Virus genome (UHGV): UHGV-1410056
DNA: 40,444 nucleotides
Reading direction: 5' to 3' (one strand)
From: a virus
Shown: positions 208-38,213 of the stretch, in pieces
How positions within the stretch are numbered: position 1 is the stretch's first letter
Layout of the letters: each line of letters begins with the position of its first letter
Notes under the pieces: model-generated
What the model saw: the letters and a program-made list of their open reading frames with translations, nothing else
Told to the model about the DNA's origin: nothing
Databases searched by the model: none
Made by a program: the position numbers and the translations under genes

Positions 208-1458
208 GTGCTTACCGATACAAAATTAAAAAACCTCAAGCCGCAGGACAAACTGTACAAGGTCTCCGATCGTGACGGGCTGTATGTAGCTGTGCTTACG
301 TCAGGCACGGTCTCGTTTCGCTATGACTACCGTATCAACGGTCGCCGCGAAACACTGGTAATCGGGCAGTATGGGCGTGACGGTATCAGCCTGGCAGAAG
401 CGCGAGAAGAACTGATTGCTGCAAAGAAGCTGCTTAAAGCAGGCCAGTCACCGGCTGCGGCTAAACGTGACGGTATCAAAAAGATTCGTGGTGCCGAGAC
501 GTTTGCGGTACATACCGACAGTTATATGAAACACGTCATCCTGGCTGACAGTACCCGCGCAATGAAACAGGCGGTGATCGACCGTGACATACTTCCGGTT
601 CTTGGCAATAAAATGATGGCTGAAATTACCACATCGATGGTTCGTGATTTGTGTGACCGGATTGTCGAACGCGGTGGCCGGGCAACAGCAGTGCAGGCCA
701 GGGAGATCATCAGTAGCGTATACCGTCACGCCAATGACCGTGGTCATGGTTTGTTTAATCCTGCGGCTGACATTAAACCTTCGTCTATCGCCATATTTAA
801 ACCACGAGAGCGAACACTGACACCAGAAGAAATTGGCCTGTTCTTCCGCACGCTGGATGCCATTGGTGCTATGGGCACTATGAAAATGGCTTTAAAACTG
901 GTGCTTATCACTATGGTTCGTAAGGGCGAATTCACCAATGCAACGTGGGATGAAATAGATTTTAAAAAATGGACATGGACAATTCCTCCAGACCGCATGA
1001 AGGGAAGCCGGGCGCACGTTATTTACCTGCCTAAACAGGCACAGGATATATTGGTCGGGTTGCAGATGTGCGCTGGTGGAAGTGAATATCTGGTTCCTGG
1101 TCGTTACAATTTCCGGAAGCCATTATCTAATGCCGCGCTGAACTCTCTGATCGACAGAACGGTGAAAATAATAAATGAAGATGGTGAGCATATTCAGGAC
1201 TTCACTGTACATGATATGCGCCGTACAGCCAGTACGTTGTTGCATGAGGCTGGTTATCCTTCAGACTGGATTGAAAAGGCTCTGGCACATGAGCAGAAAG
1301 GTGTGCGCGCCGTATATAACAAAGCGGAATACGCCAGACAGCGCGCCTACATGTTGCAGCAGTGGGCCGATATGATTGATTCATGGATTGACGGGGAGCA
1401 TACGGATCTGATTCCGTTCTCCCCGTCGAAGTTTGAGAAGTGGATGGCGGGGGAATAA
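208..1458 (+). CDS. int: Tyrosine recombinase, P4-type phage integrase
   Basis: 416-aa ORF, GTG start at 208; N-terminus LTDTKLKNLKP and C-terminal catalytic region (HDMRRTASTLLHEAG ... VRAVYNK) typical of P4-family integrases; adjacent to attL. Confidence 0.9.
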   Translation: MLTDTKLKNLKPQDKLYKVSDRDGLYVAVLTSGTVSFRYDYRINGRRETLVIGQYGRDGISLAEAREELIAAKKLLKAGQSPAAAKRDGIKKIRGAETFAVHTDSYMKHVILADSTRAMKQAVIDRDILPVLGNKMMAEITTSMVRDLCDRIVERGGRATAVQAREIISSVYRHANDRGHGLFNPAADIKPSSIAIFKPRERTLTPEEIGLFFRTLDAIGAMGTMKMALKLVLITMVRKGEFTNATWDEIDFKKWTWTIPPDRMKGSRAHVIYLPKQAQDILVGLQMCAGGSEYLVPGRYNFRKPLSNAALNSLIDRTVKIINEDGEHIQDFTVHDMRRTASTLLHEAGYPSDWIEKALAHEQKGVRAVYNKAEYARQRAYMLQQWADMIDSWIDGEHTDLIPFSPSKFEKWMAGE

Positions 1459-5539: not shown

Positions 5540-6124
5540 TTATTGTTTGCTTTTTTCGTTCTGGTTGATGACAAATTCAATGTAACTTTCGATCTTTGCT
5601 TTCTCGGTTTCGGGTAACAATGCGTAGCGTGAGCGGTCATAGTTGATAGTCGCAGGGTCGTGCGGGTGAATCAGTAGTTCATATCCGTGACGCCCGAATG
5701 CGGATGCAACATTCTCCAGGGTGGAAATGGAAACGCTGACCTCATTGTTTAACAGGCGGCTGATTGTCACCTGGGCGACGCCGGATGCGCGGTGAAGTTT
5801 TCCCTGTGTTGAAAGGTCGCGGCTTTCGCTCATCCAGCGTTCCAGGTTGTGAGCCGCCAGCTGACCTATATCGCTCGGGCCGACAGGCTGAAAACCCTCC
5901 TGAGAAAGCGAACGATCAATATCAAGCCAGTTACGGGGTTTATTGGCGGCAGCTTCAATTTTTCGTGCAACCTGGTCGCCGATAACCTTCTTGCCAAGAG
6001 CCCAGCGGTTTACCAGATTTGCCTGAGTTCCAAGTTTTTCTGCCATCCGCGTCTGAACACCATTGAATTCACGGTCGATCAAGTCGTTGAGATTTTGCCT
6101 GCGGACGTCCTGGATACTTTTCAT
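5540..6124 (-). CDS. CI-like phage repressor with two HTH (XRE-type) domains and no S24 peptidase domain
   Basis: 194 aa; two HTH-like segments (TRMAEKLGTQANLVNRW... and ASGVAQVTISRLLNNE...); no Ser/Lys autocleavage module; divergent from Cro-like gene; no SD before ATG (possibly leaderless). Confidence 0.7.
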   Translation of the reverse strand: MKSIQDVRRQNLNDLIDREFNGVQTRMAEKLGTQANLVNRWALGKKVIGDQVARKIEAAANKPRNWLDIDRSLSQEGFQPVGPSDIGQLAAHNLERWMSESRDLSTQGKLHRASGVAQVTISRLLNNEVSVSISTLENVASAFGRHGYELLIHPHDPATINYDRSRYALLPETEKAKIESYIEFVINQNEKSKQ

Positions 6125-6179: not shown

Positions 6180-6242
6180 TTACCCAACAGGTAAATGCAC
6201 CTCATAGGTAACTATCCTTGATTTTTGTTACCTTATGGGTGA
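6180..6242. promoter_or_regulatory. Putative OR region: three adjacent operators (6180-6194 perfect; 6197-6211 GCACC variant; 6228-6242 GGTGA variant)
   Basis: Lies between divergent repressor and cro-like genes; candidate rightward promoter TTGTTA-17-TATTAT overlaps the third site. Confidence 0.6.
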
Positions 6243-12273: not shown

Positions 12274-12314
12274 GAGTAGATTATGCATGATGAATTTGAT
12301 GGGTTTTGAATACT

Positions 12315-12340
12315 GCCGCCAACTATGGCGGCTTTATTTT
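12315..12340 (+). terminator. Rho-independent terminator (tR'-like) upstream of the terminase genes
   Basis: Stem GCCGCC (12315-12320), loop AACTAT, stem GGCGGC (12327-12332), then TTTATTTT. Confidence 0.7.
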
Positions 12341-12383
12341 GCATGGTACTATTACCACAACGGTAACTATTACCACGGTGGTT

Positions 12384-12980
12384 ATGATGCCTGCTGAACC
12401 TAAAACCTATAAACGCAAATCAACGCAATTTAAGCCACTAACAGCAATGCAGGAGGCTTATTGCCAGTCATACATCAAAACGCCTGAAAACCAGACTCAG
12501 GCAGCGATTAACGCAGGATTCTCCCCAAATACAGCGGCAGTTAAAGCCAGTGTCATGATGCGCGATGAACGCATTCAAAAACGGATTGCCGAGTTGATGG
12601 AGGAGCGCAACAAACGAATGCGCGTCAGTGCTGATTACGTTCTCATGCGCCTGGTGGAGATCGACCAGATGGACGTGATCGACATCCTCAACGACGATGG
12701 GAGCCTTAAACCAATCCGTGAGTGGCCGAAAATCTGGCGCACTACGCTTAGTGGCTTTGATCTGTCATCGACCATCATGAACATGAACGAGGATTCGATA
12801 GAGACAATCCTCAAAAAAATTAAATGGCCTGACAAGGTGAAGAACCTTGAGCTGATTGGTAAGCATGTTGATGTCAACGCGTTCAAAGAACGTCTGGATG
12901 TTAATGTGAATGTGACAATTGCTGATCGCATAGCAGCAGCCAGGAAGCGACTCAAAGAACGTCAGGATGGTAATCAGTGA
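12384..12980 (+). CDS. Terminase small subunit
   Basis: 198 aa from ATG 12384; N-terminal HTH-like region (AAINAGFSPNTAAVKAS); directly upstream of and overlapping the large subunit; track ORF start at 12306 lies inside a terminator hairpin. Confidence 0.65.
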   Translation: MMPAEPKTYKRKSTQFKPLTAMQEAYCQSYIKTPENQTQAAINAGFSPNTAAVKASVMMRDERIQKRIAELMEERNKRMRVSADYVLMRLVEIDQMDVIDILNDDGSLKPIREWPKIWRTTLSGFDLSSTIMNMNEDSIETILKKIKWPDKVKNLELIGKHVDVNAFKERLDVNVNVTIADRIAAARKRLKERQDGNQ

Positions 12981-15117: not shown

Positions 15118-15194
15118 TGGCGTGGCATGCAGGATTCGAACCTGCGACCAACCGCTTAGAAGGCGGTTGCTCTGTCCAACTGAGCTAATGCCAC
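15118..15194 (-). tRNA. tRNA-Arg, anticodon UCU (reads AGA)
   Basis: 77 nt; manual fold gives 7-bp acceptor stem GUGGCAU/AUGCCAC, D-stem GCUC/GAGC, anticodon stem ACCGC/GCGGU with loop CUUCUAA, T-arm GCAGG-UUCGAAU-CCUGC, encoded CCA. Confidence 0.9.
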
Positions 15195-15516: not shown

Positions 15517-15531
15517 TTACCTGAAAGGTAA
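15517..15531. promoter_or_regulatory. Perfect TTACC-tgaaa-GGTAA operator between the divergent tRNA/moron transcript and the structural operon
   Basis: Adjacent reverse-strand TTGACA (plus 15549-15554) 17 bp from a TACCTT -10 candidate. Confidence 0.5.
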
Positions 15532-32032: not shown

Positions 32033-32055
32033 CAAAAAAGCCCGCAGCGCGGGCT
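32033..32055 (-). terminator. Rho-independent terminator (minus strand) after the AT-rich two-gene cassette
   Basis: Stem AGCCCGC (32039-32045) / GCGGGCT (32049-32055), A6 on plus (T6 on minus); stem overlaps the stop codon at 32054-32056. Confidence 0.6.
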
Positions 32056-32494
32056 ATTCTTCTTCATCATTAAAAAGCGGATTGTTGTTTCCATCTGATG
32101 AAAGGAAAGGTATGTGTTCTCTTGAAAATCCAACAATGACAATTTCATTATCATTTTTTGCATAATGAATGCATTCATTAGAATGCCTTCCGCCAGGGTT
32201 GAAATTTAAGTTAATGGTATAATTCTTAAATGTGTTTGGATACCATGTTGGCCCACAATGATAATGCCAATAATTCTCTTGCTCATAATTGTCTGAGCCG
32301 GGAATTTTATCATGGTTATCATCAACCCACGAGGGCTTGTTTTTTCCAACAAGCGCCCTTCCATTGGCAACATCCTCTAAAAAACTTTGTATGATTTTTA
32401 TTTCATCATCAGTAAGGAAAGGTCCGTCTACAGCGAAAGGGGTGTTGCTTTCCCCATGTAGAAAACTATTAGATATTCTAATGTTAAACTTCAA
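32054..32494 (-). CDS. AT-rich hypothetical protein (146 aa, TTG start), unknown function; second gene of a two-gene cassette
   Basis: Track ORF 32054..32635 has no internal Met and its N-terminal 47 codons overlap the upstream small gene; TTG at 32494 preceded by AGGAG (6-nt spacer); His/Cys-rich segments (HYHCGPTW, GRHSNECIHY); markedly lower GC than surroundings. Confidence 0.45.
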   Translation of the reverse strand: MKFNIRISNSFLHGESNTPFAVDGPFLTDDEIKIIQSFLEDVANGRALVGKNKPSWVDDNHDKIPGSDNYEQENYWHYHCGPTWYPNTFKNYTINLNFNPGGRHSNECIHYAKNDNEIVIVGFSREHIPFLSSDGNNNPLFNDEEE

Positions 32495-32514
32495 GGAAAA
32501 CTCCTGATGTGCTT

Positions 32515-32682
32515 CTATTTGGAGCGAAATGCCGCCTTGAAGTCGCTGAAAGATGTTCCTGTCTGGTAAACCATATCCTTGTCGCGCTCTTTGCTTGCGC
32601 GGCCAAGCATAACTTTTCCAATGACATCCCAGCATTGCTTGGCTTGTTCATTGTGCTGAGTACGATTTTTCAACGCTGTCAT
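32515..32682 (-). CDS. Small hypothetical protein (55 aa, MTALKNRTQHNEQAKQCWDVIGKVMLGRASKERDKDMVYQTGTSFSDFKAAFRSK); first gene of the two-gene cassette
   Basis: Not in the ORF track; ATG 32682 with AGGAGG 6 nt upstream; operator 32695-32709 immediately upstream. Confidence 0.5.
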   Translation of the reverse strand: MTALKNRTQHNEQAKQCWDVIGKVMLGRASKERDKDMVYQTGTSFSDFKAAFRSK

Positions 32683-32694
32683 ATCGCGCCTCCT

Positions 32695-32709
32695 TTACCT
32701 TTAAGGTAA
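32695..32709. promoter_or_regulatory. Perfect TTACC-tttaa-GGTAA operator upstream of the two-gene cassette
   Basis: Lies 13 bp upstream of the start codon of the 55-aa gene. Confidence 0.5.
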
Positions 32710-32781: not shown

Positions 32782-33492
32782 TCAGAAGAACCCTGCCTTG
32801 TCGTTGATGTATTCCGCGTGGGTCTGGATATCACGCAGGCATTTGCTCACACCGACGATGTAGCAGAACATGGTGGTCAGCTCCGCCGCCGCGCCCGATA
32901 CGTCGTGCCCGTCGTCCTGTAACTGGTTCAGCAGATTCATCAGCAGTGAGTTCTCCGTCAGGCCGAGAACACCAGACGGCGAATTAATCAGGCTGCGGTA
33001 GCCGGGCTTCAGTGGGGCGCTGTAGGTTTTGTTCTCTATCTTCATCGCCTGCATTACTGCTGACGCCGTGGCGTTGGCTACCTGGTCGGCAACCATCTTT
33101 ATGCGTTCTTCCTGCGGGAGCGAGTTTTTAATGTAGCTTCCGGTGCGGCGGATCTGAGGAAGAACCTCACCCGTAACCCATTTACGAAAGCGGTAGGGGA
33201 TAGTGCCTGGTGTCACTGCGTCGCGGCAGCGGAGGATCAGTGTGTAGAGGCCTGACTCGGAGATGATGTTGATCTCTTTTACTCGGCTGTCAAAAATTGC
33301 ACGATGTTCATGCCCTATGTTGAACATAGACCTTTCATCATCATCCAGTTTTTCAAGTGCTTGGGTGACGTTTTGGATACGCAGCGCACTACAAACGTCT
33401 TGGGCTACAAACCATGGTTGGCCATCGATAATGATGGAACGGATAGGGTTAACAGATTCAAATTTGAAGATGGAAGTTTGAGCATTAGCCAT
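32782..33492 (-). CDS. Antirepressor (Bro-N / AntA-type N-terminal domain plus C-terminal domain)
   Basis: About 236 aa from ATG 33492; N-terminal Bro-N-like region (FKFESVNPIRSIIIDGQPWFVAQDVCSAL); C-terminal 80 aa paralogous to the LexA-box gene at 34641-34898. Confidence 0.7.
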   Translation of the reverse strand: MANAQTSIFKFESVNPIRSIIIDGQPWFVAQDVCSALRIQNVTQALEKLDDDERSMFNIGHEHRAIFDSRVKEINIISESGLYTLILRCRDAVTPGTIPYRFRKWVTGEVLPQIRRTGSYIKNSLPQEERIKMVADQVANATASAVMQAMKIENKTYSAPLKPGYRSLINSPSGVLGLTENSLLMNLLNQLQDDGHDVSGAAAELTTMFCYIVGVSKCLRDIQTHAEYINDKAGFF

Positions 33493-33510
33493 GGTGGTTA
33501 TCTCCACTTA

Positions 33511-33524
33511 GTGATTTTAATCAC
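33511..33524. promoter_or_regulatory. 14-bp palindrome GTGATTTTAATCAC just upstream of the antirepressor start
   Basis: Perfect inverted repeat GTGATT/AATCAC 19 bp upstream of ATG 33492. Confidence 0.35.
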
Positions 33525-33648
33525 CACCGCAACGCCAATTACTGGTGGTGAACTGGACAAGGTTGGCGTACCGGCCTAAGTGGTACCGGCGTCCTTTCGG
33601 ACCCCTGCCCAGCCCACCATAATTCGGATATAGCTGTGCTTAACGCAT

Positions 33649-33782
33649 AAAAAAACCACGTCTGGCGTGGTATGCGCCACTTAGTAACCCGGGACGCCAA
33701 TCCCGGCACTGGATTTTGCCAGTGCCCGATTACTATGGCACAAGAGGAGTGCGATGTAAATTTACCGCAAAGGTAATGATAA
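33649..33782 (-). ncRNA. Candidate small RNA or attenuated leader (about 120 nt) upstream of the antirepressor gene
   Basis: Reverse-strand promoter TTGATT (plus 33800-33805) - 17 bp - TATCAT (plus 33777-33782), overlapped by operator 33762-33776; transcript contains hairpins (GGCACTGG/CCAGTGCC; CCGGGA/TCCCGG) and ends at intrinsic terminator CCACG-N5-CGTGG + T7 (plus 33649-33670); no credible ORF. Confidence 0.4.
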
Positions 33783-33869
33783 ACGCGGAGAAATATCAAA
33801 ATCAACCGTATTTGGTTGGTGGCGTTTAACGCTTGATCACCTGAAAGCAAGATATTACCTTTAAGGTAA
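33762..33869. promoter_or_regulatory. Two perfect TTACC-N5-GGTAA operators (33762-33776, 33855-33869) in the divergent control region between the antirepressor side and the zinc-ribbon gene
   Basis: Second operator sits 20 bp upstream of ATG 33890. Confidence 0.5.
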
Positions 33870-33889
33870 TGTTATTGTGAGGAAAAGCA

Positions 33890-34618
33890 ATGGAAGTTTT
33901 CTGGATAGTTGTTGGTGTGGTTGCGGTGATTATTTACGTTATCAACCAGAACAAGACTAAGATCTCTGATCGTACGGTCGTTAATCATAACAAAACGATA
34001 AAGACCGAAGATGGGGAGATAACGATTAATCGTACACAGGTGATAGAACACACCTCTACTCAGTTTCAAAAAACTGGAGGTAATGCGCCTAATATTTCCG
34101 AACCTCCTGCTTATGATAGTGCGGTAATCCAGACATATTGTAAACAGCAGGAGTTAGCAAAAGAGAGGCAACTGATTCAGCCAAAGCCGTTTACAGCTGA
34201 GCTTCCACCTGGAGTATCAATGCGTCCGGCATATCATGGAAGATTCCCTGGTGATGACATATCGTCTCAGTCATCTAAAAAAGCACCTCAGGCAGTATCA
34301 GAGCCAGCAAGAATACCTTCTGTATCGCCGCCAAAAGAAGAATCAGCTAACAGAGTTTCAAGTGGCCGCAAGCAGTGTTTGCGATGCAGAATAAACCTTC
34401 CATATGACAAATTCCGGAAATCGTCAAAAAATCCAGATGGATTGACTAAGTGGTGTGCAAGGTGTCTCGATGGCCCAAAGAATACACGCCATATGAAGTG
34501 GTGCCCAATTTGTAATGTCCGCAGAAAACGGACCAGCTTTTACCCTAATAATCAAAATGCGGACGGCTTAATGGCATGGTGCAAAACGTGCTGGGACGAG
34601 CACAAAGCGAAACGATAG
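33890..34618 (+). CDS. Membrane-anchored protein with C-terminal tandem CxxC zinc-ribbon-like repeats; unknown function
   Basis: 242 aa; N-terminal TM helix (EVFWIVVGVVAVIIYVI); C-terminal repeats CLRCRINLPYDKFRKSSKNPDGLTKWCARC and CPICNVRRKRTSFYPNNQNADGLMAWCKTC. Confidence 0.55.
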   Translation: MEVFWIVVGVVAVIIYVINQNKTKISDRTVVNHNKTIKTEDGEITINRTQVIEHTSTQFQKTGGNAPNISEPPAYDSAVIQTYCKQQELAKERQLIQPKPFTAELPPGVSMRPAYHGRFPGDDISSQSSKKAPQAVSEPARIPSVSPPKEESANRVSSGRKQCLRCRINLPYDKFRKSSKNPDGLTKWCARCLDGPKNTRHMKWCPICNVRRKRTSFYPNNQNADGLMAWCKTCWDEHKAKR

Positions 34619-34640
34619 GCCGCTCTTGCGGCCTTTAAAT

Positions 34641-34898
34641 TTACCGGGTTTGTTTTCGTAATTGTTCGGCACAATAGTCGAGATGTGTTTGCAGATCCTG
34701 CATAGACATCTGTGAGCTGGTGACGTAGTTAATCAGTGCAGTCAGTTCGGCAAGTGGGCCATCGACATTAAATCCATCCTTATCGAGATCCCGGAGTAAT
34801 TTCATCAAGTGCGATCCCTCCACCAGTGACCTGACGCCTCCCGGCGTGTGAATCCTTTCGGTAAATCCGTCTTCCAGTGGATAGTGATACTGCTGCAT
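34641..34898 (-). CDS. Small LexA-controlled protein (85 aa) homologous to the antirepressor C-terminal domain; candidate SOS-induced antirepressor
   Basis: Start ATG 34898 (GGAGAAG SD) within track ORF 34641..34916; about 40% identity by eye to the C-terminus of the Bro-N antirepressor (shared GV..L.E.S.LM.LL..L..DG..V.G...ELT ... D.QTH); LexA box immediately upstream. Confidence 0.6.
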   Translation of the reverse strand: MQQYHYPLEDGFTERIHTPGGVRSLVEGSHLMKLLRDLDKDGFNVDGPLAELTALINYVTSSQMSMQDLQTHLDYCAEQLRKQTR

Positions 34899-34919
34899 CT
34901 TATCTTCTCCATGCAATAA

Positions 34920-34935
34920 CTGTATATTTATACAG
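34920..34935. promoter_or_regulatory. LexA (SOS) box CTGTATATTTATACAG
   Basis: Perfect CTGT-N8-ACAG with AT-rich spacer (extended TAACTGTATATTTATACAGTAT, 34917-34938), 4 bp from the first ATG of the minus-strand gene. Confidence 0.75.
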
Positions 34936-35093: not shown

Positions 35094-38000
35094 ATGACGG
35101 TCTCAACCGAAGTTGACCACAACGAATACACCGGTAACGGCGTTACGACATCGTTTCCGTATACTTTTCGAATTTTCAGAAAATCAGACCTGGTTGTTCA
35201 GGTGTCTGACCTGAACGGAAACGTAACAGAATTGGTTCTGGATACCGGTTATACGGTAACTGGGGCGGGCACTTATAGTGGCGGTTCTGTGGTTCTTCCG
35301 TCTCCGCTTGCTACTGGATGGCGAATTACGATAGATCGTGTGCTTGATGTAGTGCAGGAGACAGACCTTCGCAATCAGGGAAAATTTTTCCCCGAAGTGC
35401 ATGAAGATGCCTTTGACTACCTGACGATGCTGATCCAGCAATGTTTTGGGTGGTTCAGACGTGCATTGATGAAACCATCTTTGCTTGCAAAATATTACGA
35501 TGCAAAGCAAAACAAAATTTCTAACCTTGCAGATCCATCATTTGAGCAGGACGCTGTAAATAATCGCTCAATGCGTAATTATGTCGATGCTGCAATCGCC
35601 GGGGTTGTTGGTGGTTTTGGTTGGTTTATTCAGTATGGTTCTGGGGCTGTGTACCGAACGTTCCAGGATAAAATGCGTGATGCTATTAGCCCCAAAGATT
35701 TTGGAGCTGTTGGTGATGGTATAAATGACGATTCCACTGCAATAAGCGCGTGCCTTGAAGCCTCATCTCCAGGTTATAAAATTGACGGATTAGGGCTTAC
35801 TTTTAAAGTATCAACTCTTCCGGATGTCAGTCGATTTAAAAATGCTCGTTTTTTATTTGAGAGAATACCGGGCCAGCCTCTTTTTTATGCTTCTGAAGAT
35901 TTTATCCAGGGAGAGTTATTTAAAATTACAGATACACCGTGGTACAACGCCTGGACGCAGGATAAAACGTTTGTATATGACAATGTCATCTATGCGCCTT
36001 TTATGGCTGGAGACCGCCATGGTGTAAATAACCTCCATGTTGCATGGGTTCGCTCAGGAGATGACGGGAAGACCTGGACAACGCCGGAATGGCTTACAGA
36101 TTTACATGAAAACTATCCCACAGTTAACTATCACTGCATGAGTATGGGGGTTGTCAGAAATCGCCTTTTTGCTGTAATTGAGACGCGGACCGTGAGCGGA
36201 AATAAACTGCAGGTTGCAGAGTTGTGGGATCGCCCAATGAGTCGCAGCCTTCGCGCTTATGGTGGTATAACGAAAGCAGCAAATCAGCAAGTCGCTTATA
36301 TTCGCATTACTGATCACGGATTATTTGCTGGTGATTTTGTCAACTTCTCAAACTCTGGTGTTACAGGTGTTACCGGGAATATGACGGTGACTACTGTTAT
36401 TGATAAAAATACTTTTACAGTTACGACGCAAAATACCCAGGATGTGGATCAGAATAACGAGGGTAGATACTGGAGTTTTGGTACATCATTTCACTCGTCA
36501 CCATGGAGAAAAACCAGTCTTGGAACTATTCCTTCTTTTGTTGACGGAAGCACTCCTGTTACTGAGATTCACAGTTTTGCGACGATTAGCGATAACAGTT
36601 TTGCTGTTGGCTACCATAATGGTGATATTGGTCCACGCGAGCTTGGGATACTCTATTTCTCTGATGCTTTCGGTTCTCCTGGTAGCTTTGTTCGCAGACG
36701 CATACCTGCAGAATATGAGGCGAATGCATCTGAGCCATGTGTAAAATATTATGATGGCATTCTGTATCTGACGACCAGGGGGACATTAAGTACTCAACCC
36801 GGTAGTTCATTGCACAGAAGCTCTGATTTAGGTACATCATGGAATTCTCTTCGCTTCCCAAATAATGTTCATCACTCAAACCTTCCTTTTGCCAAAGTTG
36901 GCGATGAGCTGATTATTTTTGGCAGTGAGCGCGCATTTGGTGAGTGGGAAGGAGGAGAACCTGATAACCGTTATGCAGGAAATTATCCAAGAACATTTAT
37001 GACCAGAGTTAACGTCAATGAGTGGAGTCTGGATAATGTAGAGTGGGTTAATGTTACTGATCAGATTTATCAGGGCGGAATAGTTAACTCTGCAGTTGGT
37101 GTTGGTTCAGTTTGTATCAAAGACAACTGGCTGTACTACATTTTCGGTGGGGAAGACTTTCTAAACCCATGGAGCATAGGGGATAACAACAGAAAATATC
37201 CTTATGTTCACGATGGTCACCCGGCTGATTTGTATTGTTTCAGGGTGAAAATTAAACAGGAAGAATTTGTTTCAAGGGATTTTGTCTACGGAGCCACTCC
37301 TAACAGAACGCTTCCTACTTTTATGTCGACGTCAGGCGTGAGGACGGTTCCTGTACCCGTTGATTTCGCAGATGATGTTGCCGTCCAGTCACTGACTGTC
37401 CATGCAGGTACATCAGGACAAGTTCGCGCGGAAGTCAAACTTGAGGGTAATTACGCCATTATTGCGAAGAAAGTACCGTCTGATGATGTTACCGCTCAGA
37501 GATTAATCGTTAGCGGCGGTGAAACAACGTCTTCAGCAGATGGTGCAATGATAACGTTGCATGGTTCCGGAAGCAGTACTCCACGTCGCGCGGTATATAA
37601 CGCACTCGAACATCTTTTTGAGAACGGAGATGTTAAACCTTATCTTGATAATGTAAATGCTCTTGGTGGTCCGGGAAACAGGTTCTCGACAGTTTATCTT
37701 GGCTCCAATCCTGTGGTTACCAGTGACGGAACATTAAAGACAGAGCCGGTCTCTCCTGACGAAGCATTGCTGGATGCCTGGGGTGACGTCAGGTATATCG
37801 CTTATAAATGGCTGAACGCTGTCGCTATAAAGGGGGAAGAAGGGGCGAGGATACATCATGGTGTAATCGCGCAGCAACTTCGTGATGTTCTTATTTCTCA
37901 CGGACTCATGGAAGAAGAAAGCACAACATGCCGCTATGCCTTTCTTTGCTATGACGATTATCCCGCAGTATATGATGACGTCATTACTGGCCAAAGGGAA

Positions 38001-38213
38001 ATGCCGCTGACTGATAATGACGGGAGCATCATTGTTGATGAGGATGATAATCCAGTGATGGTAATGGAAGACATCATTGAGCGCGTTGAAATAACGCCAG
38101 CAGGATCTAGATGGGGGGTCAGACCTGATCTCTTATTCTATATCGAGGCAGCATGGCAGCGCAGAGAAATGGATAAGATAAAAGAGCGGATTCAGTCTCT
38201 GGAAGAACGTTAA
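35094..38213 (+). CDS. Tailspike: endo-N-acetylneuraminidase (endosialidase) with C-terminal intramolecular chaperone domain
   Basis: 1039 aa; T7 gp17-like N-terminal head-binding region; two sialidase Asp-boxes (SGDDGKTW, SSDLGTSW); long collinear match to K1F-type endosialidase catalytic region as I recall it; C-terminal about 162 aa resemble the autocleaving chaperone domain with predicted cleavage at Ser877/Asp878 (37722-37727). Confidence 0.8.
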   Translation: MTVSTEVDHNEYTGNGVTTSFPYTFRIFRKSDLVVQVSDLNGNVTELVLDTGYTVTGAGTYSGGSVVLPSPLATGWRITIDRVLDVVQETDLRNQGKFFPEVHEDAFDYLTMLIQQCFGWFRRALMKPSLLAKYYDAKQNKISNLADPSFEQDAVNNRSMRNYVDAAIAGVVGGFGWFIQYGSGAVYRTFQDKMRDAISPKDFGAVGDGINDDSTAISACLEASSPGYKIDGLGLTFKVSTLPDVSRFKNARFLFERIPGQPLFYASEDFIQGELFKITDTPWYNAWTQDKTFVYDNVIYAPFMAGDRHGVNNLHVAWVRSGDDGKTWTTPEWLTDLHENYPTVNYHCMSMGVVRNRLFAVIETRTVSGNKLQVAELWDRPMSRSLRAYGGITKAANQQVAYIRITDHGLFAGDFVNFSNSGVTGVTGNMTVTTVIDKNTFTVTTQNTQDVDQNNEGRYWSFGTSFHSSPWRKTSLGTIPSFVDGSTPVTEIHSFATISDNSFAVGYHNGDIGPRELGILYFSDAFGSPGSFVRRRIPAEYEANASEPCVKYYDGILYLTTRGTLSTQPGSSLHRSSDLGTSWNSLRFPNNVHHSNLPFAKVGDELIIFGSERAFGEWEGGEPDNRYAGNYPRTFMTRVNVNEWSLDNVEWVNVTDQIYQGGIVNSAVGVGSVCIKDNWLYYIFGGEDFLNPWSIGDNNRKYPYVHDGHPADLYCFRVKIKQEEFVSRDFVYGATPNRTLPTFMSTSGVRTVPVPVDFADDVAVQSLTVHAGTSGQVRAEVKLEGNYAIIAKKVPSDDVTAQRLIVSGGETTSSADGAMITLHGSGSSTPRRAVYNALEHLFENGDVKPYLDNVNALGGPGNRFSTVYLGSNPVVTSDGTLKTEPVSPDEALLDAWGDVRYIAYKWLNAVAIKGEEGARIHHGVIAQQLRDVLISHGLMEEESTTCRYAFLCYDDYPAVYDDVITGQREMPLTDNDGSIIVDEDDNPVMVMEDIIERVEITPAGSRWGVRPDLLFYIEAAWQRREMDKIKERIQSLEER

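Follow-up and report, generated by a model that had tools for sequence, protein, structure and literature searches.

A prophage immunity-region cassette encoding a predicted membrane-tethered tandem zinc-ribbon protein of an uncharacterised family

The virus genome UHGV-1410056, a stretch of 40,444 nucleotides that was analysed at its full length and is referred to here as the window, amounts to an almost entire Escherichia coli prophage of the epsilon15/phiV10-like kind (Uetakevirus-type), and the subject of this work is the open reading frame (ORF) at positions 33890..34618 on its plus strand. The 242-residue product belongs to PHROG 6762, a protein family that is spread across the Proteobacteria and is uncharacterised. 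Together with a terminator and a promoter that carries an operator, this one gene makes up a self-contained accessory ('moron'-type) cassette, and its product is predicted to be an inner-membrane protein with a single transmembrane (TM) helix, a flexible linker and two zinc ribbons. Because the gene occupies the slots of SieA and Rex and the protein is designed much as AbiP and PdpSau are, we tentatively favour, with somewhat less than even confidence, a role in phage-versus-phage interference (superinfection exclusion or abortive infection), in which the protein would act as a membrane-tethered nucleic-acid binder.

For prediction of topology, hydropathy and flanking charges were combined with an AlphaFold2 model built from a 30-sequence alignment. 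The top Kyte–Doolittle 19-mer begins at residue 1 (2.33), and nothing above 1.0 is found past residue 25 in the whole protein; in the model, residues 3–22 (33896..33955, plus strand) form a helix with a predicted local distance difference test (pLDDT) score of ~90. The single N-terminal TM helix proposed in an initial annotation, made from the letters of the stretch, is thereby borne out. Only 'ME' stands ahead of the helix and the next 15 residues carry a net charge of +2, a pattern common to the family, and an N-out/C-in signal-anchor is predicted. By the positive-inside rule the C-terminus should lie in the cytoplasm, and the Cys4 zinc sites require the same side. Because just two residues (M-E) precede the helix, there is no periplasmic sensor domain; a periplasmic sensor or ToxR-like regulator was rejected on this ground, and the earlier suggestion of a sensor finds no support as far as external signals are concerned. 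A secreted disulphide-rich domain was likewise rejected, given the acidic N-terminus, the positive charges after the helix and the occurrence of homologous repeats in cytoplasmic nucleases.

The helix is followed by a conserved juxtamembrane segment, residues 23–52 (33956..34045, plus strand; NQNKTK...TIKTEDGEI..RTQV), which is predicted as a β-hairpin with strands at 29–39 and 42–52, both at a low pLDDT of ~50. N21, T39 and G42 of the juxtamembrane motif are invariant among the 30 homologues. Residues 53–158 (34046..34363, plus strand) form a P/S/Q-rich linker of variable length that is disordered by pLDDT (mostly <50 from residue 53 to ~158), composition (13% Ser, 13% Pro) and alignment; as the least conserved part of the protein, it answers well to the low-complexity linker first described. 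The C-terminal domain was modelled with high confidence (residues 160–242, pLDDT >92) and consists of zinc-ribbon unit 1, residues 159–196 (34364..34477; C163, C166, C189 and C192; pLDDT >90), and of zinc-ribbon unit 2 with a basic C-terminal helix, residues 197–242 (34478..34615; C205, C208, C231 and C234), both on the plus strand. Aligned with one another, the two units prove homologous (35% identity, E 2e-7), as had been recognised at the outset, but the spacing then given, x20-24, needs correcting: both match C..C.{16}DGL..WC..C exactly, with the CxxC pairs of a unit 22 residues apart. All eight Cys are invariant or nearly so in the 30 homologues, those of unit 1 without exception, and the units probably bind zinc as Cys4 ribbons. 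The zinc domain carries a net charge of +15, the family median being +14 and the minimum +6.

Profile searches placed the whole protein in PHROG 6762 (function unknown), with an end-to-end match (E 1.1e-148) of residues 1–242 to profile positions 1–242 of 242. The earlier view that the protein could not be assigned to a family needs amending to this extent, and in that the repeats are Stc1-like; it stands in that no characterised family matches at full length. A Pfam search, as had been proposed for the C-terminal part, returned no family above threshold, the sole candidate being Stc1 (PF12898; 21.6 bits, E 3e-4, below the gathering cut-off of 24.8). This match spans residues 161–193 and the last third of the model (positions 52–83 of 84), and the repeat can be regarded as a relative of the Stc1 family, not as a formal member. 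Nor was homology to a characterised family with a housekeeping function found, which the initial annotation had named as a finding that would speak against it. Searches of NCBIfam and PADLOC with the protein gave no match.

Among phage families, a match to phrog_1035 was obtained at residues 142–192, and the region of unit 2 matched limited stretches of PHROGs labelled 'endonuclease VII', 'HNH' and 'Lar-like'. The matches to 'endonuclease' PHROGs were confined to profile positions 45–95 of 271, 8–52 of 142, 5–48 of 171 and 48–92 of 211, and are best read as matches to zinc-ribbon arms, not to catalytic cores. The HNH and Endonuclease_7 models of Pfam found no match in the protein even at E values up to 10. 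Since no catalytic model matches, the protein carries the accessory Stc1-like ribbon and not the nuclease; a nuclease function was rejected, as neither a catalytic motif (ββα-Me) nor a match to a catalytic model was present.

Fold comparison was first affected by the linker: a Foldseek search of the PDB with the full-length model gave nothing below E 2.8, the disordered middle probably swamping the signal, and the searches were redone with a model of the C-terminal 87 residues alone. That model is confident and treble-clef/ribbon-like, and its fold matches show that the Cys4 zinc module shares its fold with modules of HNH/Endonuclease VII (ββα-Me) nucleases. In a viral structure library, 42 proteins were found at E <1e-3, mostly HNH, Endonuclease VII or other ββα-Me nucleases or proteins named 'Stc1 domain' or 'Zn-finger', and residues 2–41 of PacI match the family profile weakly (E 0.075). 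A RING domain, the sole match of a single-sequence PDB search, was put down to chance. Relatives of the repeat outside the family (n = 102) included 47 with Stc1 (E <1e-4), 12 with Endonuclease_7, 12 with HNH, two with Bro-N and one with KilA-N, and many are arrays of 3–10 repeats. From the association with nucleases and from the charge, the tandem ribbons are most likely a nucleic-acid-binding module. The TM helix and hairpin were also searched alone for fusions to other C-terminal parts; only truncated fragments of the same family were returned, which neither supports nor contradicts module swapping. In the literature, neither a characterised prophage protein with a TM helix and zinc ribbons nor a 'Stc1 domain' in phages was found.

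To follow the gene across genomes, 5426 complete E. coli genomes were screened, of which 129, including avian pathogenic E. coli (APEC) O2:K1, carry it, all at full length and all labelled 'hypothetical protein'. Disruption or loss of conservation in related elements, considered in the initial annotation, was not seen, as the frame is open and conserved in 58 of the 58 IMG/VR loci whose conserved gene start could be located. Against the most divergent E. coli alleles, the ratio of nonsynonymous to synonymous polymorphism (pN/pS) is 0.2–0.4, with ~0.1 in the zinc domain and ~0.65 in the linker. The majority fraction is 0.79 in the TM helix, 0.26 in the linker and 0.7–0.8 in the other parts. That the TM helix and juxtamembrane segment are as conserved as the zinc domain points to a specific activity at the membrane, not to a passive anchor, and the conserved helix and hairpin suggest oligomerisation or a membrane partner.

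Homologues with identities down to 39% were found in Superficieibacter, Enterobacter, Citrobacter, Salmonella, Serratia, Providencia, Pectobacterium and Buttiauxella; they have in common a near-invariant TM helix, the juxtamembrane motif and the eight Cys, and differ in the length and sequence of the linker. A scan of species-representative genomes gave two loci only, and the IMG/VR scans gave far more. In an exhaustive search of 1.84 billion cluster representatives with a profile of the C-terminal domain, 2954 proteins were found at E <1e-3, and among the best 150 of these about 40 further 50%-identity clusters have the design of the family at 21–43% identity: 150–240 residues with an N-terminal hydrophobic helix, N..(K/S)T, the hairpin motif, a linker and two ribbons, so that the juxtamembrane segment is retained even in distant members. 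Family members are present in Yersinia phages YeP4-6 and Aeromonas phage phiARM81mr, member loci range from 37 to 61% G+C, and no member was found on a plasmid in PLSDB. The homologue of Yersinia phage YeP5 (L167, 1900–2634) has a (TK)n expansion, NQTKTKTKTKTKTKTKTKTND, directly after the TM helix, which suggests that the basic juxtamembrane stretch tolerates repeat slippage; its annotated start lies ~29 codons upstream of the conserved MEIFW start.

These data also bear on whether the gene functions at all. Repeats of this kind are otherwise attached to HNH or Endonuclease VII catalytic domains, which are missing here, and the protein could in principle be a relic without function, left when a homing endonuclease decayed to its zinc-ribbon arm and this arm became joined, by accident, to a hydrophobic leader. 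Such an origin is hardly credible: the architecture is conserved from E. coli to Aeromonas, over the same spans of G+C content and sequence identity, the gene is under purifying selection and intact in all checked loci, and it has a conserved promoter and terminator of its own. On account of the conservation data, the relic explanation is effectively refuted.

The promoter of the gene was missed by a generic promoter scan and was seen only when upstream regions were compared across genera. It is predicted as TTGATC-17-TACCTT, with the -35 hexamer at 33833..33838 (plus strand), invariant in 52 E. coli alleles. The -10 hexamer TACCTT (33856–33861) forms the left arm of a perfect 17-bp operator palindrome, ATTACCTTTAAGGTAAT (33854..33870), whose 15-bp core, TTACCTTTAAGGTAA, lies at 33855–33869 and which ends ~19–20 bp ahead of the ATG; the perfect operator ~20 bp from the start that had been reported earlier was thus recovered. 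A Shine-Dalgarno sequence, GAGGAA, was read at 33879..33884 (plus strand), 5–6 nt ahead of the ATG, and an intrinsic terminator, AGGCCGC-TCTT-GCGGCCT then TTTAAATTT (34617..34634, plus strand), comes after the stop codon. The layout, with the -10 in the left arm of the palindrome and 17 nt past the -35, is kept across genera: TTGATC-17-TACCTT in E. coli and L074, TTGACC-17-TACCTT in Enterobacter, Citrobacter and Salmonella, TTGAAC-17-TACCTT in Serratia and TTGAAC-17-TAACCT in Providencia, where the palindrome is correspondingly TTAACC-N5-GGTTAA. Across the 52 E. coli alleles there is hardly any variation from -57 to -1, while -123 to -60 are polymorphic, and the operator is changed in only one allele. 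In loci of the Superficieibacter, Enterobacter, Citrobacter and Salmonella type (L066-L072), a second palindrome, TGTGACATGTCACA, is found ~60–75 bp upstream of the gene and ~2–18 bp upstream of the predicted -35, behind the terminator that closes the antirepressor gene before it; the E. coli window has no such second palindrome.

The operator is one of a set. TTACC-N5-GGTAA occurs in 14 copies in the window with at most one mismatch, 11 of them perfect, against 0.59 expected, and none of 100 shuffles reached 14. The copies start at 151, 5405, 5468, 6180, 6228, 8467, 8529, 12352, 12370, 15517, 32695, 33762, 33855 and 34975, and lie before the integrase gene (208..1458), on both sides of the repressor gene, in the early divergent region (8467, 8529), before the gene for the small terminase subunit (12306..12980) and in the immI region. 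The repressor (HTH_3; 5540..6124, minus strand), which is presumed to bind the operators, is separated by those at 6180 and 6228 from a divergent 76-residue cro-like ORF. Because there are 14 copies, including those between the repressor and the cro-like gene, the palindrome is taken to be the immunity operator, with binding by the repressor as the probable mode of action. The dispersed operators would form a P1-C1-like regulon, the C1 regulon of phage P1 being the model for this comparison; no description of a dispersed operator regulon in Uetakeviruses was found in the literature. The repressor assignment agrees with phage ZX5, in which ORF21, homologous to the product of 5540..6124, behaves as a repressor (PMC9782041). 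With its -10 inside a perfect immunity operator, the gene should, by prediction, be under repression in a lysogen and be released from it when the phage infects or is induced.

Two further operators of this set lie near other genes. A consensus promoter on the minus strand, TTGACA-17-TACCTT, with its -10 in the operator at 15517–15531, aims leftward at a phage tRNA gene (15121–15194). The core TTACCTTTAAGGTAA recurs identically at 32695–32709, at least 60 bp upstream of the listed start of a 193-residue ORF (region 32054–32709, minus strand) of PHROG 5954 (function unknown), for which no Pfam or PADLOC match was obtained; the true start of this ORF may be further downstream, as the PHROG 5954 match begins at residue 49.

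Comparison with related phages set the limits of the cassette. Around the gene, Escherichia phage TL-2011b gives the best phage match, with 94.7% over 99% of the query, and phiV10, ZX5, phiv142-3 and others align with the two flanks of the locus only. In phiV10, ~75 bp stand in place of the ~0.9 kb that holds the gene's operator, ORF and terminator. It is because gene, promoter and terminator are all missing from phiV10-type relatives that the unit was classed as an accessory cassette. In TL-2011b itself (record JQ011317, 34513–35241; L001, 4377–5105), the 242-residue ORF is intact and no coding sequence is annotated for it, the annotation at this place being a 1089-bp misc_feature 'similar to hypothetical protein'.

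To compare genomic positions, loci from other lineages were inspected. In Enterobacterales, over at least 10 diverse loci, the gene always lies between genes for ejection or virion proteins and the tailspike gene, by antirepressors (Ant, Bro-N or KilA-N) that are often preceded by isrK and C4. In L158 it starts 17–18 bp after a gene for CI (HTH_3 + Peptidase_S24) divergent from cro, in phiARM81mr 17–18 bp after the annotated CI gene, divergent from the annotated Cro gene, and in L163-166 16 bp after a gene for an HTH_3 regulator. The slot directly behind CI in L158 and phiARM81mr is the position of rexAB in lambda. In L010, the gene starts 12 bp after mnt in a P22-type immI (arc, sar RNA, ant, mnt), and P22 has orf59a and sieA at the matching position (PMC10883804). 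The gene is thus linked with repressors of lysogeny maintenance in several independent lineages, and where it lies behind CI or Mnt it should, being in all appearance transcriptionally fused, be expressed in lysogens.

Control and position together were used to weigh what the protein does. The initial annotation had listed superinfection exclusion and injection blocking among the candidate roles, and the sieA and rexAB slots speak for these, but an operator over the -10 does not fit a classical exclusion gene that is expressed in the lysogen. Repressor control of this kind would keep a harmful product off in the lysogen, and a host take-over or toxic function can be envisaged in which, on loss of the repressor, the nucleoid is non-specifically tethered to the membrane or division is disturbed (Kil/Icd/Noc-like). 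The basic DNA-binding domain joined to a membrane anchor would suit such a role, and P1 immI has the division inhibitor icd next to ant. We give this explanation little credence, however, since co-transcription with CI or Mnt elsewhere would make the product constitutive in lysogens, and since no similarity to known Kil or Icd proteins is seen.

Early expression from the operator-controlled promoter would also be expected of a protein that anchors the phage's own DNA to the membrane in early lytic development, as p16.7 of phi29 does, and the design, an N-terminal TM helix with a cytoplasmic DNA-binding domain, is the same. Against this, the gene is accessory and absent from phiV10-type phages, other lineages place it co-oriented 12–18 bp behind lysogeny repressors, which are off in lytic growth, and there is no fold relation to p16.7; to our knowledge, these phages do not use protein-primed replication. 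Own-DNA anchoring is accordingly held to be quite improbable.

A further explanation is that the protein modulates the phage's own lysis-lysogeny switch, the tethered module sequestering or stabilising a regulator (repressor, antirepressor or CII-like) or inhibiting a membrane protease such as FtsH, with a logic that resembles lambda CIII or RexA. The gene is always found in immunity modules, divergent from isrK-C4-ant here and downstream of Ant, Mnt or CI elsewhere, and its control by the immunity operator mirrors that of lambda cII and cIII, which CI represses and whose products act immediately after infection. The time just after infection is also the only one at which all the wirings (CI-linked, Mnt-linked and operator-controlled) would give expression, and fingers of the Stc1 type mediate protein contacts in eukaryotes. 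Yet phiV10 and ZX5 do without the gene despite having the same repressor, operator and ant set-up; the +15 charge of the domain and its association with nucleases favour a nucleic acid over a protein as partner; and no partner gene co-varies, the cassette consisting of a single gene. A switch modulator is on balance unlikely, though it carries some weight.

In the favoured reading, phage-versus-phage interference, the protein would be a bitopic inner-membrane protein with its N-terminus barely reaching the periplasm, one TM helix and a juxtamembrane hairpin, and a flexible linker of ~100 residues would hold the strongly basic tandem Cys4 domain in the cytoplasm. The tethered ribbons would capture nucleic acid at the cytoplasmic face, where incoming phage DNA must appear. 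From there, either productive DNA entry of a competing phage would be blocked, as in superinfection exclusion (Sie), or the TM/hairpin module would trigger membrane failure or arrest of replication, in the manner of abortive infection (Abi), of which AbiP and PdpSau are examples. In this phage, expression would come on fresh infection or induction, the repressor shutting the gene off in the lysogen. A more specific version, a one-polypeptide 'mini-Rex' acting as membrane-anchored DNA sensor and effector, in which the ribbons seize foreign DNA on its emergence at the inner membrane, or replication intermediates, and clustering of the TM/hairpin module plugs the entry or depolarises the membrane, is speculative and must be counted as doubtful.

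Several points weigh against interference. With a perfect operator over its -10, the gene should be tightly repressed in a lysogen; the resting lysogen would then go unprotected, unlike in the usual Sie logic, and the wiring suits equally well a function that is required soon after infection or induction. The protein has no match in PADLOC or NCBIfam and no sequence or fold relation to SieA or to the OB-like (oligonucleotide/oligosaccharide-binding) domain of AbiP and PdpSau. As Stc1-type fingers can mediate protein–protein contacts, DNA binding is not assured, and since accessory genes of every sort accumulate in immunity regions, position alone is weak evidence. Early-expressed exclusion functions have precedents in T4 Imm and Sp and in T5 Llp. 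P22 sieA, too, is upregulated on induction (PMC10883804).

Accessory membrane proteins of prophage immunity regions are, as a kind of element, already well known, and it is in these regions that the classical exclusion systems rexAB, sieA and sieB were found. The family occupies the slots of exclusion systems in several unrelated phage lineages and yet is 'hypothetical' everywhere and outside Pfam, NCBIfam and PADLOC; no account of a protein that joins an N-out anchor to a hairpin, a tether and Stc1-like ribbons was found in the literature searched. Were it an exclusion or Abi factor, the few membrane-anchored nucleic-acid-binding defence proteins would be joined by one with a novel combination of domains, a TM anchor with a tandem zinc ribbon, the Stc1-like ribbon would gain a function outside nucleases, and the finding would matter for phage therapy directed at K1-encapsulated and other pathogenic E. 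coli in which the gene is present. If the 'mini-Rex' version were true, a new and widespread class of single-gene anti-phage systems, from Enterobacterales to Aeromonas and beyond, would be missing from the defence catalogues. If the protein instead tunes the switch, the choice between lysis and lysogeny in P1-like immI systems would have a novel input that is linked to the membrane.

The surroundings of the cassette in the window were annotated in the same way. As first described, the gene is divergent from an antirepressor control region: on the minus strand lie isrK (33649–33725), C4 antisense RNA (33541–33624), upstream of the antirepressor, and a Bro-N antirepressor (32782..33507), which together form a divergent immI-like unit (32782..33725). 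With the operator that adjoins it, the segment 32782–33776 (minus strand) is a P1-type immI module. Two candidate leftward promoters precede the isrK-C4-ant operon: the upstream one lies under a second operator (33762..33776, found in the TTACC-N5-GGTAA scan), and the downstream one, TTTACA-17-TGnCATAGT, would start at the 5' end of isrK. The operator at 33762 is retained in phiV10, which lacks the cassette to its right. The elements isrK, C4 and ant are found together again in Serratia, Superficieibacter, Enterobacter-type, Providencia and other loci.

To the right of the cassette, a small minus-strand ORF (region 34641–34935; ATG at 34898) is preceded at a distance of 22 bp by a near-consensus LexA box, CTGTATATTTATACAG (34920–34935). 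This ORF matches PHROG 450, the C-terminal domain of Ant-type antirepressors, and looks like an SOS-controlled small antirepressor with Tum/Gifsy-like logic. CTGT-N8-ACAG is matched at two more places in the window, but with GC-rich centres, and these matches are probably fortuitous. The window also encodes large virion proteins. The tailspike (35094–38213, plus strand) is a complete endosialidase, with End_N_terminal, End_beta_propel (E 1e-233), End_beta_barrel and End_tail_spike domains and a Peptidase_S74 chaperone, and its N-terminal ~120 residues resemble the N-terminus of the TL-2011b tail fibre. The prophage is an epsilon15-like phage specific for the K1 capsule, and its K1-specific tailspike agrees with the matches of the gene in O2:K1 APEC genomes.

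For comparison with known systems, architecture, position and control were considered side by side. In architecture alone, E. coli ZipA is similar, with an N-out/C-in bitopic anchor, a P/Q-rich flexible tether and a globular cytoplasmic binding domain; it differs in that it serves division of the host and binds FtsZ through its C-terminal domain, with no zinc ribbon and no homology. The repeat, CxxC...DG..(W)CxxC, is like those of HNH/Endonuclease VII arms, PacI, Hpy99I and Stc1 (PF12898), but a fusion to a TM anchor and linker is undescribed in these nuclease zinc-ribbon families, and their catalytic ββα-Me is absent here. Lambda RexA and RexB combine a DNA-binding and a membrane component, as the single family protein would, and share with the family the position directly downstream of cI seen in L158 and phiARM81mr; they differ as two proteins with a polytopic RexB, where here there is one bitopic chain without homology. 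The p16.7 protein of phi29, which is early and integral to the membrane, has its TM helix at the N-terminus and its DNA-binding domain in the cytoplasm, and brings replicating phage DNA to the membrane (PMC4974454); it differs in its fold, in its link to protein-primed replication and in not being encoded by an accessory gene of an immunity region.

SieA of P22 is, as is predicted for the family protein, a prophage accessory inner-membrane protein whose conserved part faces the cytoplasm, and its gene, between those for ejection proteins and tailspike and beside mnt, arc and ant, is placed like the family gene, which in L010 is directly behind mnt. SieA has three TM helices, ~162 residues and a cytoplasmic FxRYPxEAxxFNK motif (PMC10883804); the family protein differs in having one TM helix and zinc ribbons, with FxRYPxEAxxFNK absent, and the sieA promoter is active in lysogens, whereas the promoter of the family gene here carries the immunity operator. 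Abortive infection is caused by AbiP and PdpSau, in which a membrane anchor at the N-terminus is joined to a nucleic-acid-binding domain that is positively charged and cytoplasmic (PMC10127798). Each, like the family, is a single gene for an N-terminal membrane helix and a basic cytoplasmic C-terminal part (the topology here being predicted), and PdpSau is likewise a prophage accessory gene (PMC10127798). They differ in an OB-fold-like domain where the family has a tandem Cys4 zinc ribbon, no sequence relation being detectable and no PADLOC match being obtained, and no long disordered linker is described for them, whereas the family protein has one. Their hosts are Gram-positive (lactococcal for AbiP, staphylococcal for PdpSau) and those of the family are Proteobacteria, and PdpSau adjoins lysis genes where the family gene sits in the immunity region. 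AbiP and PdpSau are the only characterised proteins found that share the logic of a membrane anchor joined to a nucleic-acid binder.

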